NCBI GenBank assembly: GCA_043813445.1
Contig: JBDRLD010000028.1
Span: 1-39,667, forward strand
DNA length: 39,667 nt
Direction of reading: 5' to 3'
Source of the DNA: Candidatus Uhrbacteria bacterium
Lineage (GTDB): Bacteria > Patescibacteriota > Patescibacteriia > JACPHY01
The first letter of the stretch is position 1, and each line of letters begins with the position of its first letter. The notes under the pieces were generated by a model. It saw only the letters and a list, made by a program, of their open reading frames with translations. It was not told the DNA's origin and did not search any database. The position numbers and the translations under genes are program-made. Positions 29,615 to 38,081 of the stretch are shown in pieces.

Positions 29615-29711
29615 TGTCATTGCGAGGAGCGCGTCTGCGCGCGACGCGGCAATCCCGTTACTAGTGAACCGGATCGCCACGTCGTTCGAGTACTCCCTCC
29701 TCGCGATGACA
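29615..29711. repeat. Complete GTCATTGCGAG palindromic element
   Basis: Same arms as 28094-28178 with different loop sequences. Confidence 0.85.
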
Positions 29712-30488: not shown

Positions 30489-30713
30489 TGTCATTGCGAG
30501 CGGAACGTAGTGGAGCGCGGCAATCCCGTAGCTGTATTGAGTGGGGTCACTATGTCACTTCCCGCCCTAGGCGGGCTCATGGGCGGTGGTGCTATCCCCG
30601 CCCATCCGGACGGGCGACCATGGAAGGCCGCCCCTACGAAGTCAATTCCTGACGTAGGGGCGGGGTTCAATCCCCGCCCGTCTGGACGCGACCACAATGG
30701 GATCGCCCCTACG
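30489..30713. repeat. GTCATTGCGAG half-element (30489-30528) and GTAG REP doublet copy 3 (30605-30683) with an extra REP
   Basis: Direct match to the other copies in the window. Confidence 0.82.
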
Positions 30714-30743
30714 AAGATGTGAATCGTGATGTCCATCGTTCTG

Positions 30744-30785
30744 ATCCGCACATCTGCATCATCAGTATTCTGTTCTGATCCGTAT
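30744..30785. repeat. Solo arm of the GxxExxY-associated inverted repeat
   Basis: ATCCGCACATCTGCATCATCAGT...ATCCGTAT is the reverse-complement homolog of 36867-36908. Confidence 0.75.
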
Positions 30786-30888
30786 TTACTCCTACGAAGA
30801 GAGGGCACCTCGTCATACTACTGCGGGGAGGGTGCCCATTTCCGAGATATTGTATATGCATAGCGAGAATCAACGGCATAACACATAC

Positions 30889-32949
30889 ATGATGTGGAAA
30901 CCTATGGGTTTCCGCTACGTTATTTTTGGACTACTCATCATACTGATGGGCTGTCCGCTTGCGGCACTCGCTCTTGTTCCATCCGATCCGCTTTTCAGTG
31001 AGCAGTGGTATCTACAGGATATTGGCGCGCCAACCGCATGGGACACGACGATTGGAAATCCGTCGTCGGTTATTGCGGTACTCGATATTGGTGTCGACAT
31101 TAATCATCCAGATCTTGCGGATGCAATGTGGATCAATCCTGATGAAGTGTCCGGGAATGGTATTGACGATGATGGGAATGGATATATCGATGACATGCAT
31201 GGTTGGGATTTTGTGGGTCATGATGCTGACCCGACGCCTGCGTATGATGTCCCCGGATCCAATCCGAACGACCTTCATCATGGAACCACCGTTGCTGGCA
31301 TTATCGCGGCGCGCGGGGATAACGGCGTCGGTATCGTTGGTATTGATTGGCTCGCGAAGATCATGCCGCTCCGCGTGCTGTCCAGCGATGGAACCGGTGA
31401 TGTGAGTGCGGTGCTGAAGGCGCTCGCATACGCCGAGCGTGAGGGTGCTACGATTGTGAACATGAGTTTTGTCGGTGCAGATCGATCGCCAGAGCTGGAT
31501 GCAATGGTGGATGAACTGGCGGCGCATGGAATTCTCATTGTCGCTGCCGGTGGAAATGAGGATAATTCCGGGCGGGGCAACCTCGACGTGTATCCGGCGT
31601 ATCCCATTTGTTCAGGAACCGACGGCGAAGATGTACTTGGTGTCGCCGCATCGGATCAGAATGGGCAGAAAGCGTCGTTCTCGAGCTACGGAAGTTGCGT
31701 GGATATCGTTGCGCCAGGGAGTCATATTGCCGGAGCGCTCTACCACGATCCCACCCATACCATCATTGCAATTGACAAAAACATCACGAAAACGACGTTC
31801 AGCGATCCGTTCGGTGGATATTTTTCCGGAACATCCTACGCAACGCCGATTGTCGCCGGTGCGGCCTCGCTGCTTCGTGGACTGCTTCCACTGGCGACAC
31901 CACATGAGATCGTGCACATCTTGAAGCAAACCGCAGTGCCGGTGGAGCGATTGCCTGCCGGACTGCAGAATCGACTCGGTGCCGGACGTCTCAATCTTGC
32001 GGCGGCGGTTGCAGAGGCGGCGAAGCGTGTGCAGCTCATACCGAGCACTTCGCGATCGACCATCGATGTCGACGCGGTACTCGCATCGCCGGGTGTCCCT
32101 GTTCCGGTGCGCGTGACCGTGCGTGATGCGAACGGGAATGGCTTGGCGGGTCGTGCGGTTGTGCTTGGATCATCACGTGTAAATGATAGTATCACGCCGA
32201 GTGAGGTGCTTACCGACGCGGGCGGAGTAGCGACGTTTGCGATCCTCGCAACCGAGGAGGGGATTGCGACGCTCGCAGCATCTGCAGGCGACCTCGTTAT
32301 TGCGAACGGTCGCGCCGTGTTTGCATCGGCAACCACGGCTCCGATCGGAGTTGGGTCGTTGCTTAAGGGTTCGACGAGTGCAGTGTACGTAATCGGGTCA
32401 GATGCGAAGCGGTATGCATTCCCGGATGCGCAGACGTATCGGTCGTGGTATGCGGATGACTTCAGTGTGCAGCGTGTCCCGGACACGGTGCTTGCCGCAT
32501 TTCCGCTCGGCGGACTTATCACCGTGCGGCCAGGGACATATCTCGTGAAGATTCAGTCCGATCCGAAGGTGTATGCGGTGGATGCTTCGAGAACGGGGCG
32601 GATCGGCGGTATGCTGCGGTGGGTGGAGAGTGAGACTGTAGCGACACAGCTGTTCGGGAGCGATTGGGCACAGCGAGTCATCGATGTGCCGGTTGAGTTC
32701 TTTACGACATATACGATCGGCGCGTCGCTTGATGGAACGACCTATCCGGATGGCGTCGTGCTCGAGGATGAACGTGACGGCGAACGATACTTGGCAGTGA
32801 ACGGTACACGTCGTCACATTATGTCCATGCTCTCCTTCCTCCAAAATGGCTTCCAGCTTAGGCATGTTATCCATATTCCTACCGTGAATCTCCCAGATGG
32901 AGCCCCAATCATCAAACGAGAGGCGAATATCGCGGCCCCTGTTTTGTGA
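30889..32949 (+). CDS. Secreted S8 (subtilisin-like) serine protease with a Big_1-like domain and the shared C-terminal repeated domain
   Basis: Triad motifs VIAVLDIGVD, HGTTVAG and SGTSYATP; oxyanion AAGGN; C-terminal SDAKRYAFPD..TYRSWY / VKIQSDPKVYAV. Start 30889 or 30904. Confidence 0.92.
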   Translation: MMWKPMGFRYVIFGLLIILMGCPLAALALVPSDPLFSEQWYLQDIGAPTAWDTTIGNPSSVIAVLDIGVDINHPDLADAMWINPDEVSGNGIDDDGNGYIDDMHGWDFVGHDADPTPAYDVPGSNPNDLHHGTTVAGIIAARGDNGVGIVGIDWLAKIMPLRVLSSDGTGDVSAVLKALAYAEREGATIVNMSFVGADRSPELDAMVDELAAHGILIVAAGGNEDNSGRGNLDVYPAYPICSGTDGEDVLGVAASDQNGQKASFSSYGSCVDIVAPGSHIAGALYHDPTHTIIAIDKNITKTTFSDPFGGYFSGTSYATPIVAGAASLLRGLLPLATPHEIVHILKQTAVPVERLPAGLQNRLGAGRLNLAAAVAEAAKRVQLIPSTSRSTIDVDAVLASPGVPVPVRVTVRDANGNGLAGRAVVLGSSRVNDSITPSEVLTDAGGVATFAILATEEGIATLAASAGDLVIANGRAVFASATTAPIGVGSLLKGSTSAVYVIGSDAKRYAFPDAQTYRSWYADDFSVQRVPDTVLAAFPLGGLITVRPGTYLVKIQSDPKVYAVDASRTGRIGGMLRWVESETVATQLFGSDWAQRVIDVPVEFFTTYTIGASLDGTTYPDGVVLEDERDGERYLAVNGTRRHIMSMLSFLQNGFQLRHVIHIPTVNLPDGAPIIKREANIAAPVL

Positions 32950-32955
32950 TATAAT
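32947..32955 (+). promoter_or_regulatory. Consensus extended -10 (TG-A-TATAAT) overlapping the protease stop codon
   Basis: TGATATAAT lies directly upstream of the GxxExxY gene. Confidence 0.5.
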
Positions 32956-33435
32956 ACGGATGATGCTGATTGAAAAAGCAGATGATGCGGATATGCGGAT
33001 GCACGATGATGGGCTCATTTATGCAGAGCTCACCTATCAATTAAACGGTGTCTGCTTTGCGGTTCAGAATGTTTTGGGACGGAATTGCTCGGAGAAGCAA
33101 TACGCAGATGCGATCGAAAAGTACCTAATAGAAAAAGAGTTGTCTTTTAGTAGAGAATATGTTCTTCCGCCAATGTTCGAGGGTGAACAGCCGGGACGAC
33201 ATCGCGTGGACTTCTTTATTGACGGACGTGTAGTGCTTGAATTGAAGGCTAAGAAAATGATCGAACGAGTCGATTATGATCAGCTTCTTCGGTATTTGAA
33301 TGTATTAAATTGCAAGTTGGGACTGTTGGTAAATTTTCGAGAACGAAATTTGAAACCAAGGCGTGTACTTAATTCACGGGCACCGGTAATCATATCGGCA
33401 TATCCGCATCATCGGCATCTTTGATTGATCCGTAT
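32954..33435. mobile_element. Inverted-repeat-bounded GxxExxY nuclease cassette (putative mobile element)
   Basis: Inner IR 32978-33000 / 33394-33416 matches at 21/23; outer ATACGGAT / ATCCGTAT; an empty homolog is at 36867-36974. Confidence 0.65.
32960..33424 (+). CDS. GxxExxY protein (PD-(D/E)XK nuclease superfamily)
   Basis: LIY.ELTY...G..F.V...LG....EKQY, R.DF.IDG.VVLELKA and QLL.YL......LGLLVNF. The start may be 32960, 32993 or 32999. Confidence 0.9.
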   Translation: MMLIEKADDADMRMHDDGLIYAELTYQLNGVCFAVQNVLGRNCSEKQYADAIEKYLIEKELSFSREYVLPPMFEGEQPGRHRVDFFIDGRVVLELKAKKMIERVDYDQLLRYLNVLNCKLGLLVNFRERNLKPRRVLNSRAPVIISAYPHHRHL

Positions 33436-33439
33436 ACGT

Positions 33440-34450
33440 ATGTTTGAAAAACCCATTTTTGATAGGCCGAACGTGCTCGTGACCGGTGGTGCGGGTTTTA
33501 TTGGTTCGCGACTTTGTGAGCGTCTTCTTGAACGGGCAAAGGTGATTTGCGCGGACAACTTCGTTTCTGGGACTGAGCGGAATATCCACCACCTGTTTCA
33601 GAATCCGAATTTCATTTTTCTCAAGCAGGACGTCGCTGTGCCATTCGATTTGACGACTTTTCCGGAGCTTGAACGGTTCAAGGTAAAGTTTCAGGGAGTG
33701 CAGGAGGTCTATCACTTTGCATGCCCGACTTCGCCGAAGGATTTTGAGAATTTGCGCATCCCGACACTCATCGCGAATGCGTATGGGACGGTGAACACGC
33801 TGCACATCGCGCAACAGTACGAAGCGAGATACATTCTCGGATCGTCATCGGTCGTCTATGGAGATGCGGCGAAAGAGGGTGAGTTCCAGCAGGAGGATCA
33901 CTACGGAGTTGTCGACCATCTCGGTCCACGCGCGTGTTACGACGAGGGGAAGCGGTTTGCTGAGACCGTGGTCGCTACGTATCGGCAGCAGTATGGTATT
34001 GACGCGAAGATCGCGCGCATCTTTCGAACGTACGGCCCGCGACAGCGGCTACGCATCGGCGAAATGCTCCCGGATTTTATCGTCAACGCACTCGAGGGGC
34101 GTGATCTCGTCGTTTATGGCGATGAGTCTTTTACAACATCGCTTGCGTACGTCGATGATGTTGTCGATGGTATTCTGAAGCTCATGGCGAGCGAGGAGGG
34201 CGGGCCGATGAATTTTGGTGGAAACGAGTCATATAAGATCGCCGATGTCGCACAGAAGGTTATCGAACTTACGAATTCGACGTCGAAGATCCGATTCGAA
34301 CAACCATTACTCTTCATGCGCGCGCAAGGAATTCCAGACATCGGGCGCGCACGCGAAGCACTCGGCTGGACACCGATCGTGCGACTTGAGGACGGCCTTA
34401 AACTCTCCATAGAATATGCCCAGGCCCATAAGGAGATGTTGGGATACTAG
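33440..34450 (+). CDS. NAD-dependent epimerase/dehydratase, UDP-glucuronate decarboxylase (UXS)-like
   Basis: TGGAGFIG, YHFACPTSP, GPRACYDEGKR (YxxxK) and RIF.TYGPR motifs. Confidence 0.9.
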   Translation: MFEKPIFDRPNVLVTGGAGFIGSRLCERLLERAKVICADNFVSGTERNIHHLFQNPNFIFLKQDVAVPFDLTTFPELERFKVKFQGVQEVYHFACPTSPKDFENLRIPTLIANAYGTVNTLHIAQQYEARYILGSSSVVYGDAAKEGEFQQEDHYGVVDHLGPRACYDEGKRFAETVVATYRQQYGIDAKIARIFRTYGPRQRLRIGEMLPDFIVNALEGRDLVVYGDESFTTSLAYVDDVVDGILKLMASEEGGPMNFGGNESYKIADVAQKVIELTNSTSKIRFEQPLLFMRAQGIPDIGRAREALGWTPIVRLEDGLKLSIEYAQAHKEMLGY

Positions 34451-34455
34451 GGGAA

Positions 34456-34505
34456 AATATCCAAGGTCCAAGCTCAAATGACCAATGAAGTTCCAATGAC
34501 ACAAT
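34456..34505. repeat. Heptamer-periodic arm (..CCAA...)n, left partner of 35275-35324
   Basis: 34/45 ungapped identity to the reverse complement of the 35275-35324 arm. Confidence 0.7.
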
Positions 34506-34547
34506 TCACGATCAATTCAATTAAATGGACTAAGTTCATTTAACGGT

Positions 34548-35207
34548 ATGCGCGTTGCGGTGATTCCTGCGTACAACGAAGAGCGCACCGTGGGAGATGT
34601 GGTGCGACGCGTGCGGGAGTTTATCCCGCACGTCGTTGTTGTTGACGATGGTTCGAGTGATGCAACGGCTGAGCGTGCGCGTGCAGCCGGTGCGTACGTG
34701 GTGTGTCATGTGGTGAATCGTGGGTTAGGTGGTGCGCTCGGGACGGGTATTCGCATTGCGTGCGATCTAGGAGCAGACTTCATAGTGACGCTCGACGCAG
34801 ATGGGCAGCACGACCCGGTGGACGCCCCTGCACTCATCGCACCCATTGAACGCGGAGACGCGGATGTGGTGATTGGCGTACGAGAACGGAGTGTTGATAT
34901 TCCAGTGTCGCGTCGCGTTGCGCATGCGGTGAGTAATATCTATACGCGACTGCTCTTCGGTGTATACTGTTCGGACACGCAGTCCGGTTTTCGTGCGATG
35001 AGCCGCTCTGCCGCAATGCGGATTGAGATTCGTACGAATCGTATGGAGGTTTCATCGGAGATTATCGGTGAGATCGGTCGACACAAGCTTCGTCTTGTGG
35101 AGGTGCCAATCAGAACTATTTACACCGACTACTCACTCTCGAAGGGGCAGAGCTTCACTGCCGGCCTCAAAACCGCGTGGTCGCTGCTACTTCGAAAACT
35201 GCTCTGA
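34548..35207 (+). CDS. Glycosyltransferase family 2, DPM1-like (polyprenol-phosphate glycosyltransferase)
   Basis: VIPAYNEE, VVDDGSSD, N.GLGGA..TG, TLDADGQH and DTQSGFRA motifs. Confidence 0.93.
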   Translation: MRVAVIPAYNEERTVGDVVRRVREFIPHVVVVDDGSSDATAERARAAGAYVVCHVVNRGLGGALGTGIRIACDLGADFIVTLDADGQHDPVDAPALIAPIERGDADVVIGVRERSVDIPVSRRVAHAVSNIYTRLLFGVYCSDTQSGFRAMSRSAAMRIEIRTNRMEVSSEIIGEIGRHKLRLVEVPIRTIYTDYSLSKGQSFTAGLKTAWSLLLRKLL

Positions 35208-35217
35208 GTCTCCCATT

Positions 35218-35238
35218 AAAAGACTCCCGGAGTCTTTT
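35218..35238. terminator. Short palindrome, possible terminator
   Basis: AAAAGACTCC-C-GGAGTCTTTT. Confidence 0.5.
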
Positions 35239-35274
35239 CACGTAGCATCATGGTAGAGCCCCTCGTGTGTTGAT

Positions 35275-35324
35275 CATTGGGCATTGGAATTTTGTTGGTC
35301 ATTTGAATTTGGGAATTGGTCATT
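35275..35324. repeat. Heptamer-periodic arm (..TTGG...)n, right partner of 34456-34505
   Basis: CATTGGG CATTGGA ATTTTG TTGGTCA TTTGAAT TTGGGAA TTGGTCA TT. Confidence 0.7.
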
Positions 35325-35343
35325 CTTTGCGAAGCAAAGCCGT

Positions 35344-35727
35344 ATGCTCATGCGTTTTCTCCTAATTATTGTTGCGGGGGCTGGACTCGTTTGGACGCTG
35401 TCACGTGTGCGGCGTCGTGATGTGCGACGACGTGAACTTATCGGTTGGGGGATCGTTTGGATCCTCGTCGCTGCGGTTGCGGTTGTTCCCGAGGGGACGA
35501 ATCGTCTCGCGGATCTCCTGGGAATCGGCCGTGGGGCCGATGTGGTGGTGTATAGTGCGCTTGTTGTTATGGTTGTGCTCCATATTCGCCAGTCGGTGCG
35601 TATGGAACGGATGGATCGTGATATTACGATCGTGACTCGGGAGATTGCCAGCCAGGATTTTCGACAGCGTGGAGATGCTGGTGGGCTTGCCGAGCGCGGC
35701 TTGAAGCGGCAGGATGGTGATATGTGA
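35344..35727 (+). CDS. DUF2304-family small membrane protein
   Basis: W...W......P......LA.LLGIGRGADVVVY and I....REIA; typical neighbour of DPM1-like GT2. Confidence 0.85.
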   Translation: MLMRFLLIIVAGAGLVWTLSRVRRRDVRRRELIGWGIVWILVAAVAVVPEGTNRLADLLGIGRGADVVVYSALVVMVVLHIRQSVRMERMDRDITIVTREIASQDFRQRGDAGGLAERGLKRQDGDM

Positions 35728-36866
35728 TCTACATCATCATTTTGTCTTACCAGAGCCCCGACGACGTTCGGCGCTGCGTAGAGAGTGTTCTTCGCACAAA
35801 TGAGCGACCCGAGCGATTTCGGGTCGTTGTTGTGGATAATGCTTCAACTGAGGACACCCGTGCCGCACTCTCAGAGTTCGACGGTCGCATTGATGTTATC
35901 CTTGAGTCGGAGAATACCGGGTACGCGGGTGGGATGAATGTTGGAATCCGACATGCCCTGCAGCATGGCGCAGAATACGTGGTATTACTCAATCAGGACA
36001 CCGAAGTGGATCCGACATGGCTCACACACCTCCGTGCAGCGATGGAATCAGATACACGAATCGCTGCGGCGCAGCCGCGGATTATGTATGGTGGGAGCGA
36101 TGCCCCGCACGATGATCTTGTAAACAGCGTCGGCAATGAGATCCATGTGCTCGGGTTTGGTTATGCGGGCGGCCACGGCGAGCGGTGGAGTGCAATTCGT
36201 TCACGATTACACGGGTATCCATATCCGGAGGTAACGTACTGCTCCGGCGCGGCGGTGATGTACCGAGCCAGAGCACTTATCGACGTGGCGTTGCAGAAGT
36301 TAGAAGTTAGAAGTGAGAAGTCAGAAGAAGATAACTCTCAAATCTCAACTCTCAACTCTCAATTTTTCGACGAGGATTATTTCCTTTACCACGAAGATCT
36401 CGATATCGGAGTGCGATTCTGGCTGCGCGATTGGAGTAGTGTGCTCGTACCAAACGCGGTCGTCACACATCATTATGAATTCTCACGGAGCATCGCAAAA
36501 CTCTATTGGATGGAGCGGAACCGCATGTTGTTCCTCTACCAGAATTTCCGTCTCCCAACATTACTCCTCCTCGCGCTCCCGCTGCTCGTAAGCGAGCTTG
36601 GAATGCTCATGATTGCTCGTCGGGGCGGATGGCTCAAAGAGAAGCTCCGCGCATGGCGATCGCTTGGCTCGGTAACGCGTTGGCATACGTACTATGCGCA
36701 CCGGCGAATGAAGCAGGCGAAGCGTATGCTTCCCGATCGCGCCATCATACGACGGCTATCACCGGTACTTGCGAATCAGGAGGTATCAAGTCCGTTGGTC
36801 GATCATATCGTTAATCCACTCGTCTCCCTCTGGTGGCGTTGTGTCCTCCCGTTTATTCGGTGGTAA
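35724..36866 (+). CDS. Glycosyltransferase family 2 (WbbL/rhamnosyltransferase-like)
   Basis: VVDNAS, N.GYAGG.N.G, LLNQD, CSGAA and FDEDYFLYHEDLD motifs; GTGA overlap with DUF2304. Confidence 0.92.
   Translation: MIYIIILSYQSPDDVRRCVESVLRTNERPERFRVVVVDNASTEDTRAALSEFDGRIDVILESENTGYAGGMNVGIRHALQHGAEYVVLLNQDTEVDPTWLTHLRAAMESDTRIAAAQPRIMYGGSDAPHDDLVNSVGNEIHVLGFGYAGGHGERWSAIRSRLHGYPYPEVTYCSGAAVMYRARALIDVALQKLEVRSEKSEEDNSQISTLNSQFFDEDYFLYHEDLDIGVRFWLRDWSSVLVPNAVVTHHYEFSRSIAKLYWMERNRMLFLYQNFRLPTLLLLALPLLVSELGMLMIARRGGWLKEKLRAWRSLGSVTRWHTYYAHRRMKQAKRMLPDRAIIRRLSPVLANQEVSSPLVDHIVNPLVSLWWRCVLPFIRW
36294..36361. repeat. In-frame heptamer tandem repeats inside the GT2
   Basis: (N)AGAAGT x5 followed by A(C/A)TCTCA x4; encodes QKLEVRSEKSEEDNSQISTLNSQ. 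Confidence 0.85.
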
Positions 36867-36974
36867 ATACAGATTAGATCGGAATACCGATGATGCTGAT
36901 ATACGGATAAGAAATACCGTTGTGGTATCCCATCAGCATATCCGCATCATCTGCATAGAGTTATACATCCGTAT
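36867..36974. mobile_element. Empty (non-autonomous) copy of the GxxExxY inverted-repeat element
   Basis: The right core 36932-36954 is the reverse complement of 32978-33000 at 22/23; outer ATACAGAT/ATCCGTAT; it fills the intergenic gap exactly from TAA to ATG. Confidence 0.72.
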
Positions 36975-38081
36975 ATGCGTGTTGCACACATTGTTTCGAC
37001 CTACCCTCCTTATCGCGGCGGCATGGGAAATGTTGCTCGTGAACTCGCACAACGCACCGTCGATGTTGGGTTTGAGGTGCGTGTGCTCACGCCGGCAGTA
37101 ACAGATCACGAGGAGACACGGCACGTCCGCGCGGGTTTGCGATACGGGAATGCGGCCTGGTGTCCATCTATCGGTCATCAGCTCATCGACGGACGATACA
37201 CGATTGCACACCTTCACTGGCCGTTTATTGGGACGCTCGGAATGGTCTTGCGCTGGCGGCGACGGTATCCGAATCGACGCCTTGTCGTGCAGTATCATAT
37301 GGACCTCGTTGCAACCGGTGCACGAGGTGCGGCATTCTCGTCCTACGTGAAGCGTGCGCTCCCGAATGTCGTATCCGTTGCCGACGCCATTGTCGCCACA
37401 TCGCGTGACTATGCAGAGCACGGTGCCCTTGCCGAGCACATCGAGACACTCGGGGATCGTTTCATGGAAATACCACTAGGTGTCGATGCGGAGCGTTTTA
37501 CTCCACAAGTCGGAAATCGTCAGCCGGGCCCGTTTCGATTATTGTTTGTTGGGGCGCTCGATGTCGCGCACGCATTTAAGGGATTGCCGCTTCTCCTCGA
37601 AGCGATCGAGCGTGTGCCGCGGGTGCAACTGTGTATTGTTGGAGATGGGCCACTACGCGAGAAATACGAAGCGCGTGCGCGGACGATCGGCATTGAGGAG
37701 CGTGTCACATTCCTTGGATCGGTCTCCGACGAGGACCTCCCACAGACGTATTTGAATTCGGATGTTGTGGTACTCCCATCGACGGCGCGATCCGAAGCGT
37801 TTGGCCTTGTACTTCTCGAGGGCATGGCATGCGGAAAGCCGGTGATTACATCAGAGCTTCCCGGTGTTCGTACGGTGGTATCGGATGGGGAGGCAGGACT
37901 CTTAATTGAGCCGGGTGATGTGCAGGCACTTGAGCGTTGCATTATTGCACTTCGTGATGATCTCGATCGTGTCGCGCGGATGGGTGCGGCGGCACGTGCG
38001 CGAGTGGTCAAGCAGTATACGTGGAAAAATGTTGCACACCAGTGGAGAGCGCTCTATGATCAAATCCTCAAAGCTCGTTGA
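36975..38081 (+). CDS. Glycosyltransferase family 4
   Basis: YPPYRGGM, YHMD, FVGALD.AH.FKG and EAFGLVLLEG motifs. Confidence 0.93.
   Translation: MRVAHIVSTYPPYRGGMGNVARELAQRTVDVGFEVRVLTPAVTDHEETRHVRAGLRYGNAAWCPSIGHQLIDGRYTIAHLHWPFIGTLGMVLRWRRRYPNRRLVVQYHMDLVATGARGAAFSSYVKRALPNVVSVADAIVATSRDYAEHGALAEHIETLGDRFMEIPLGVDAERFTPQVGNRQPGPFRLLFVGALDVAHAFKGLPLLLEAIERVPRVQLCIVGDGPLREKYEARARTIGIEERVTFLGSVSDEDLPQTYLNSDVVVLPSTARSEAFGLVLLEGMACGKPVITSELPGVRTVVSDGEAGLLIEPGDVQALERCIIALRDDLDRVARMGAAARARVVKQYTWKNVAHQWRALYDQILKAR

Follow-up and report, generated by a model that had tools for sequence, protein, structure and literature searches.

The stretch of DNA analysed in this study (hereafter the window) comprises the 39,667 nucleotides (nt) of contig JBDRLD010000028.1, termed C28 below, from a Candidatus Uhrbacteria genome, and carries at 32954-33435 a compact unit in which the gene for a protein of the GxxExxY family is placed between two inverted arms (Table 1). 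The unit was delimited from the sequence and from a repeat comparison of the window. Its arms are bipartite, with an outer word and an inner 23-mer on either side of a spacer, and the repeat search returned the inner inverted pair as 28 nt at 86%. Gene and arms overlap: the ATG (32999-33001) shares the last two bases of the left arm, the open reading frame (ORF) runs through the right inner arm, and the stop codon (33422-33424) falls between the inner and outer parts of that arm, within which the C-terminal tail is encoded. The unit is closely packed between its neighbours, with 4 nt (32950-32953) separating it from the upstream TGA (32947-32949) and another 4 nt (33436-33439) from the downstream ATG (33440). 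The flanking-repeat score of the locus was 36, whereas 100 shuffles averaged 15.3 and peaked at 23.

A second unit of the same architecture, in which a short loop takes the place of the gene, fills the gap between two further genes precisely: its first base follows directly on a TAA (36864-36866) and its last base directly precedes an ATG (36975). The inner arms of this unit (36884-36908 and 36932-36956) lie 23 nt apart and are 80% complementary. The window also contains a solo arm, which is one module of a mosaic block at about 30560-30840 assembled from several repeat families. The same block includes hairpins rich in guanine and cytosine (GC) that have dozens of copies in the genome, and its modules are unrelated to each other. 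An earlier note on this DNA, made from the letters alone, had described a bipartite inverted repeat with a 21/23 inner match, a gene-less form, a solo arm and 4-nt gaps to the neighbouring codons, and each of these elements was recovered here with matching coordinates.

Table 1. Positions of the GxxExxY unit, its gene-less and solo relatives and the adjoining host genes in the window.
Feature	Position	Strand	Remarks
Left arm	32954..33000	+	Five phased words of the type nnGCnGAT / ATACGGAT; outer word, non-repeated spacer, inner 23-mer
Left outer word	32954-32961		ATACGGAT
GxxExxY / PDDEXK_3 gene	32999..33424	+	141 amino acids; profile matches TIGR04256 and PF13366
Right arm	33394..33435	-	Inner 23-mer 33394-33416, spacer, outer word ATCCGTAT
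Right outer word	33428-33435		ATCCGTAT; the outer words pair 8/8
Inner 23-mers	32978-33000 and 33394-33416		21/23 complementary
Gene-less unit	36867..36974	.	108 nt; left arm 36867-36908, loop 36909-36931 (23 nt), right arm 36932-36974
Solo right-type arm	30744..30785	-	23-mer with 4 mismatches and exact outer word; 74% match to the right arm over 42 nt
Subtilase with Big_1 domain (upstream host gene)	30832..32949	+	Stop 4 nt before the gene-carrying unit
NAD-dependent epimerase/dehydratase (downstream host gene)	33440..34450	+	ATG 4 nt after the gene-carrying unit
Glycosyltransferase of family 2 (GT2)	35724..36866	+	Stop abuts the gene-less unit
Glycosyltransferase of family 1 (GT1)	36975..38081	+	ATG abuts the gene-less unit

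The protein scored 86.9 bits against TIGR04256 (GxxExxY, cut-off 35) and 87.8 bits against PF13366 (PDDEXK_3, cut-off 22); these were the sole Pfam and NCBIfam matches of the ORF, with no transposase domain among them. In an alignment of 15 sequences the residues G18, E23, D62, E72, K74, Q86 and Y90 were invariant and Y26 was present in at least 90%, so that, judged by alignment, the D...ExK site of the PD-(D/E)XK nucleases (D62, E72, K74) is intact. An AlphaFold2 model (predicted local distance difference test score 94.1, predicted template modelling score 0.85) predicts a restriction-endonuclease-like fold. The structural neighbours of the model were nearly all PD-(D/E)XK nucleases, e.g. the BpuSI nuclease domain (Z 7.9), Cas4 SSO0001 (Z 7.8) and Hjc (Z 6.5); none reached Z 8 and no PD-(D/E)XK subfamily stood out. 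Foldseek returned nothing at E up to 1e-3. The best sequence-profile match in the PDB, T7 endonuclease I, had an E-value of 0.0023 and was set aside as too weak to use.

Between the source genome (G000) and its relative G003 the GxxExxY gene has a rate of nonsynonymous substitution (dN) of 0.228, with synonymous sites saturated and a ratio of nonsynonymous to synonymous differences (pN/pS) of 0.24; the neighbouring epimerase has a dN of 0.204 and a ratio of nonsynonymous to synonymous rates (dN/dS) of 0.08. The dN of the gene is thus similar to that of the epimerase, which together with the invariant catalytic residues indicates that the gene is kept by selection. The family is large: a single-sequence search returned 4036 representative clusters at E up to 1e-3. 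Two divergent RecG helicases of about 900 residues (P0051 and P0077) contain an in-frame GxxExxY domain at the same site between the helicase motifs, with arm-like peptides on both sides. In other long hits the GxxExxY sequence is fused to a downstream pilin-like N_methyl protein or to an upstream GT1 (P0017, P0022 and P0040; P0034). The long fusion hits are probably read-through of tightly packed units.

Orthologous junctions were compared to place both units in relation to their surroundings. The subtilase-epimerase junction was available in G000, in the related genomes G001-G004 and in the metagenome contig L134; the epimerase orthologues of G001-G004 and L134 are 67-73% identical, and a metagenome scan with the epimerase gave a single locus. 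The GxxExxY unit occupies this junction in G000 and G003, the gap measures 12 nt in G004 and 23 nt in L134, and G002 and G001 contain other inverted-repeat elements of about 230 and 300 nt, respectively. By both flanking genes L134 is the nearest kin of G003 (86.6% identity in the epimerase, 77.2% in the subtilase C-terminus); the corresponding identities between G000 and G003 are 71.4% and 57.8%. Since L134 is empty despite being the closest kin of G003, either two insertions occurred at one junction or an old insertion was cleanly lost at least three times, histories that are drawn from pairwise identities and not from a rooted tree. At the GT2-GT1 junction the 108-nt gene-less unit of G000 is absent from all three orthologous sites: the two genes overlap in G004 and are separated by 4 nt in G001 and by 17 nt in G002. 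On the basis of these comparisons, the gene-carrying and the gene-less unit are both insertions into an otherwise conserved sugar-synthesis operon. A second paralogue lineage of the nuclease gene (G000:C81 and G003:C19) is not syntenic. Five public sequencing runs contained part of the window, with no RNA run listed among them, all as low-depth contigs that break at the arms; some read contigs bridge the left boundary of the gene-carrying unit, and some bridge the gene-less unit.

Other repeats are found along the same operon. A second inverted pair of word arrays (34456-34498 and 35282-35324; CCAAT/CCAAG type, 43 nt, 77% complementary) surrounds a GT2 gene at 34548-35207. This gene is syntenic in G001, G002 and G004, so the arrays lie at successive junctions and flank a host gene rather than a cassette. 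In G002 (L109) 7-nt words of the GAACGCA type form a gene-less hairpin that fills the epimerase-GT2 spacer of about 70 nt. Within the GT2 gene 35724-36866, positions 36295-36365 are taken up by a patch of 7-nt words that keeps the reading frame and encodes the loop EVRSEKSEEDNSQISTLNSQ; at this position G004 lacks 19 residues, G002 lacks 5 and G001 lacks 6. Depth peaks and loose ends of the read contigs at the patch suggest that it is repeated elsewhere.

In the source genome (0.99 Mb in 114 contigs, 88.75% complete) the 23-mer has 33 copies at 23 loci when up to 4 mismatches are allowed, and a 20-mer core with up to 2 mismatches gave 32 hits versus none for the reversed-pattern control. As many of the repeat loci are near contig ends, these numbers are probably lower bounds. 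The majority of the copies are arms standing alone or in direct tandem, and four gene-less inverted pairs were found (on C27, C28, C78 and C79). The 33 arms at 23 loci are to be compared with two genes of the same arm type. All three GxxExxY genes of this genome carry arms. Beside the window gene, the gene at C81:4903-5244 is flanked by arms whose words are closely related in type; the left arm borders directly on its ATG, and the right arm is followed by the start codon (ATG) of the next gene. The gene at C53:5519-5869, which looked bare in the first flank scoring, has arms of a different word, CACnGAT, the left one displaced by a nested insertion of about 280 nt (G000:C53:5888-6165) that has an inverted repeat of its own. 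The arms of the C27 hairpin show 0 mismatches and have an atypical base in common, and the gene-less unit of C28 shows 5 mismatches in 23. The 223-nt loop of the C27 hairpin consists of other repeat modules, with no gene remnant in it. At two loci (G000:C73:1729-1838 and G000:C30:2795-2904) the 23-mer is split at one and the same point by a GC-rich hairpin module, and the right arm of the G003 unit is interrupted by a different GC hairpin; repeats are therefore nested within repeats.

The arms themselves are runs of three to five short words of 6-7 nt with a period of 7-9 nt, ACGAAT being the commonest word class and GCGGAT the word at the window locus. Partner arms are identical to 0.90-0.99 at word positions, to 0.71 at the free middle base and to 0.66-0.71 in the spacers. 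An arm comprises an outer module and an inner 20-mer with a spacer of about 10 nt in between, which is not complementary across partners, and the hairpins of G003 are built in the same way. Conserved words with free spacers fit phased sites of protein recognition and not a stem selected for pairing.

The distribution of the repeat was analysed in 41 related genomes. The 20-mer gave 32 hits in G000 and 15 in G003, and the other 39 genomes had only 0-1. G003 alone among the relatives has this arm around a GxxExxY gene, the product of which is identical to that of the window gene at 99 of 141 residues (70%). The variant GCTGAT accounts for 10 of the 32 hits in G000 and none of the 15 in G003, and the variant ACGCGGAT for 4 of the 15 in G003 and none of the 32 in G000. 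The commonest variant thus differs between the two genomes, which fits amplification within each of them. Eight of the 41 genomes, among them G000, contain TIGR04256. Among their 18 loci two were too near a contig end, and at 13 of the 16 that were scored the flanking inverted repeat exceeded all 100 shuffles. A second sample comprised 80 loci from species genomes, of which 79 could be tested, and 422 shifted windows served as controls: 73 of the 79 loci were above the 95th percentile of the controls and 69 above the 99th, with a median flank score of 36 compared to 16 in the controls. Because this sample was found with a narrow alignment it is biased toward Patescibacteria-like sequences, and its records are mostly Patescibacteria, with a few labelled Bacteroidia, DPANN archaea and Gammaproteobacteria. 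Among cultured bacteria, Sphingomonas parapaucimobilis (NZ_CP155749.1, L128) carries an armed GxxExxY gene between fabD and fabG in the fatty-acid synthesis operon and may offer a tractable model.

The words of the arms and the protein co-vary. From 95 loci, the 79 with a score above 24 and a translated match without a stop codon were compared, and protein identity correlated with the 5-mer similarity of the arms (Mantel r = 0.377), a value reached by none of 1000 permutations. Similarity in GC content accounted for little (r = 0.07), and the partial Mantel r with GC removed was 0.357. The nearest protein neighbour in another genome had the same word class in 33 of the 79 cases, where 9.8 were expected and 22 was the maximum in 2000 shuffles. 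In every one of the six genomes with two or more GxxExxY copies the copies differ in word class, and the five genes of G017 represent five classes.

The earlier note had proposed that the nuclease gene and its repeats form an autonomous/non-autonomous pair, to be examined by counting the 23-mer in the genome, aligning the loci in relatives and comparing the repeats with the protein phylogeny. The count showed that one repeat family occurs as solo arms, as gene-less inverted doublets and as a unit with the gene; the full and the gene-less form both vary in presence among relatives (G004, L134, G001 and G002); and the arms follow the protein in the correlation and shared word class described above. 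The same note had named what would speak against its proposal, i.e. an equal abundance of the repeat family in genomes without GxxExxY, a general lack of such repeats around homologues, or a locus that does not vary among relatives. Given the co-occurrence, the flank surveys and the junction variation, none of the three was found outright: the 20-mer is abundant in G000 and G003 alone, tempered by the related word arrays of a further genome (G019, see below), arms flank the large majority of the homologues surveyed in the first two samples, and the junctions vary.

We read the unit as a repeat-plus-nuclease system that operates at the DNA level in the manner of REPIN/RAYT with an unrelated enzyme, and we consider the chances that this is right to be about even. 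The PD-(D/E)XK domain of approximately 115 residues, encoded by the only gene of the unit, would bind the arm words sequence-specifically with several copies per arm, bring two arms together and cut the DNA at or near them, and host repair or replication would copy or remove the arm pairs. Arm pairs would spread in trans and, as with RAYT and REPINs, the gene would keep to one or a few junctions; having no visible promoter space of its own, it would be read with the host operon, and its shared orientation with the neighbours at most loci (see below) is in line with this. According to this reading the gene-less unit and the solo arm of the window are gene-less derivatives of the system of which the unit at 32954-33435 is the gene-carrying member. 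REPIN/RAYT systems consist of doublets of repetitive extragenic palindromic (REP) sequences and REP-associated tyrosine transposases, as described in the accessible parts of the respective reports (PMC3337134, PMC3116915, bioRxiv 10.1101/2022.05.22.493013). As far as those parts go, the two systems share an enzyme gene with a short repeat in inverted orientation on either side, intergenic copies without the gene (inverted doublets and single repeats) that far outnumber it, about one gene per repeat family per genome, purifying selection on the gene, and repeat populations that differ between related genomes. Set against the same accounts, the enzyme of the window is a PD-(D/E)XK protein (PF13366) and not an HUH Y1 transposase of the IS200/IS605-like type, and its arms are phased arrays of three to five non-palindromic words with free spacers instead of a single palindromic REP hairpin. 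Without an HUH Y1 transposase and without a palindromic REP, the GxxExxY system is not a member of REPIN/RAYT. It differs further in its occurrence in very small genomes, in records labelled Patescibacteria, Bacteroidia, DPANN archaea and others, and in its mobilisation, which is putative.

Several observations weigh against this reading. Hydrolytic nucleases of this size (about 115 residues) are not known to join DNA, which leaves the integration step without a candidate enzyme. No target-site duplication was visible when filled and empty junctions were compared at the subtilase-epimerase and GT2-GT1 sites, and no read joint skipping the unit was found in the five runs, the depth of which is far too low to expect an excision signal. 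In G000 the two arms of a pair do not consistently resemble each other more than they resemble other copies. The co-variation statistics ignore host relatedness, although the different word classes within one genome argue against a purely compositional or host-lineage cause. In a third sample, taken from cultured bacteria (plasmid or chromid records) and comprising eight GxxExxY loci, clear arms were seen at just three (Sphingomonas, Bacteroides finegoldii and Bernardetia), one locus was borderline, and four had none within the 150 nt of flank that were searched. The 98%-complete genome G019 has gene-less inverted arrays of period-7 words (TACnAAT type) at several gene junctions (L115-L121), and PF13366 was not found in its assembly at E up to 1. 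Among the 41 genomes, a crude three-word pattern failed to distinguish gene carriers from non-carriers; this pattern missed the words of G000 itself (0 hits). Finally, the gene-less unit is predicted to fold weakly (-26.8 kcal/mol, z = -1.94, equalled by 10 of 200 shuffles). The earlier note had likened the pair to RAYT/REPIN, with a nuclease that spreads or maintains RNA-foldable repeats: the layout, the numbers, the junction variation and the inverted arms hold up, the foldability is weak in view of this folding energy and the poorly matched spacers, and the spread of the repeats by the nuclease is a proposal.

Homing would explain several of the same observations. Here the word-array hairpins would be independent elements that spread otherwise, the nuclease would cut gene-less hairpins and the gene would be copied into their loops by repair, with the arms as target and homology and not as cargo. 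The gene indeed takes the position of the loop of the gene-less form, its presence and absence at one junction among close kin is the expected pattern, G019 has hairpins without the gene, and in the two RecG proteins the domain occupies an identical internal site. PD-(D/E)XK folds include homing endonucleases, and I-Bth0305I is a weak fold match of the model (Foldseek E 0.06; Z 5.2). Efficient homing would however fill the many empty hairpins, which face one gene per arm type per genome; moreover, the 20-mer is abundant, among the 41 genomes, in the two with a cognate gene alone, and the loop of the C27 hairpin holds other modules instead of a gene remnant, and we consider homing unlikely. An element that acts at the RNA level, improbable in our view, is weighed down by the marginal advantage of the gene-less unit over shuffled sequences in folding (z = -1.94; 10 of 200 as good), by spacers that are not complementary either between the words or between the outer and inner modules, by the solo and tandem direct arms that are unable to pair and yet form the majority in G000, and by the lack of an Rfam family match; in the window the sole Rfam hit was a sub-threshold miRNA model at 29616-29710. 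In such an element the arms would pair in the operon transcript, like those of 23S rRNA intervening sequences, and RNase III or the GxxExxY protein would process the stem, thereby setting the expression of the nuclease and separating or stabilising the flanking messages. It would suit an orientation that equals that of the neighbours at 54 of 57 loci with same-direction neighbours (by crude, ORF-based neighbour calls), a unit that abuts the stop and start codons of co-directional genes, and a stem that would mask both the start and the stop codon, which lie in the left and the right arm, respectively; tRNA-splicing endonucleases are among the weak fold matches (Z 5.6-5.7).

The nuclease could also be a domesticated host factor to which the arrays serve as sites on the chromosome, for example in repair, in the handling of replication forks or in nucleoid organisation, with gene and arrays currently immobile. 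Purifying selection comparable to that on a housekeeping neighbour, the occurrence of the gene in two genera at one and the same junction, a single gene for each word class in a genome, and conserved words with free spacers that resemble binding sites would all be in line with such a role. Against it stand the patchy distribution of the gene (8 of the 41 related genomes), its absence from the same junction in L134, the closest kin of G003, the non-syntenic second paralogue lineage in G000 and G003, the lineage-specific gene-less unit at 36867-36974, and a dominant arm variant that each genome has for itself, which make this explanation rather unlikely. The placement of the gene between two arms by chance, in a genome rich in intergenic repeats, appears highly improbable: several abundant repeat families do fill intergenic gaps as mosaics, and an ordinary GT2 gene in syntenic position likewise lies between two inverted arrays, but all three GxxExxY genes of G000 have arms, as do 73 of the 79 loci elsewhere when compared to shifted-window controls, and the words co-vary with the protein. 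The flank survey and the co-variation already contradict coincidence.

The unit shares single traits with further known elements. The 23S rRNA intervening sequences may carry an ORF for an S23p / four-helix-bundle protein (PF05635) and are likewise small ORFs within an inverted repeat, cleanly inserted and co-oriented in a transcribed host unit. The GxxExxY unit differs from them in that it lies between protein-coding genes, encodes PF13366 and not S23p / PF05635, and has arms that pair poorly outside the words. Free-standing homing endonuclease genes, which include PD-(D/E)XK types, resemble it as lone small nuclease genes that are present or absent at the same site among kin and have no transposase; they differ from it with respect to its own inverted word arrays, its abundant gene-less copies and the lack of an intron or intein context. 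With the mosaic intergenic repeats of enterobacteria, of the bacterial interspersed mosaic element type, and with the Rickettsia palindromic elements it has in common modular mosaics at junctions and repeats that are tolerated in frame inside genes; its sequence families are other ones, and the family of the window has a dedicated nuclease gene. Unlike insertion sequences or miniature inverted-repeat transposable elements with terminal inverted repeats, the unit has no transposase domain of a known family and showed no target-site duplication.

More broadly, and tentatively, since we lean somewhat towards doubting it, the units may represent a new class of prokaryotic mobile DNA, in which a lone nuclease of about 115 residues reads phased 6-7-nt words in its own inverted ends, enters and leaves gene junctions without target duplication, even in frame in essential genes such as recG, and seeds gene-less hairpins in large populations across many bacterial and archaeal phyla. 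A survey of PD-(D/E)XK proteins lists, in its accessible part, the function of GxxExxY / PF13366 as unknown (PMC3424549), and one paper that names GxxExxY deals, in the portion available, with CRISPR-linked reverse transcriptases and not with the function of the gene. A search of one library of papers, without their supplements, found no published description of the pairing of this nuclease with word arrays, so the partnership of repeat and enzyme is apparently undescribed so far. If the pairing reflects recognition and cutting, it would give the GxxExxY / PF13366 family a function. A sizeable part of the intergenic repeats in very small genomes would then be explained, and a second, mechanistically unrelated long-lived partnership of repeat and enzyme would stand beside REPIN/RAYT. 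The co-varying words and proteins would in addition constitute a natural library of short-word DNA specificities on a minimal nuclease scaffold.

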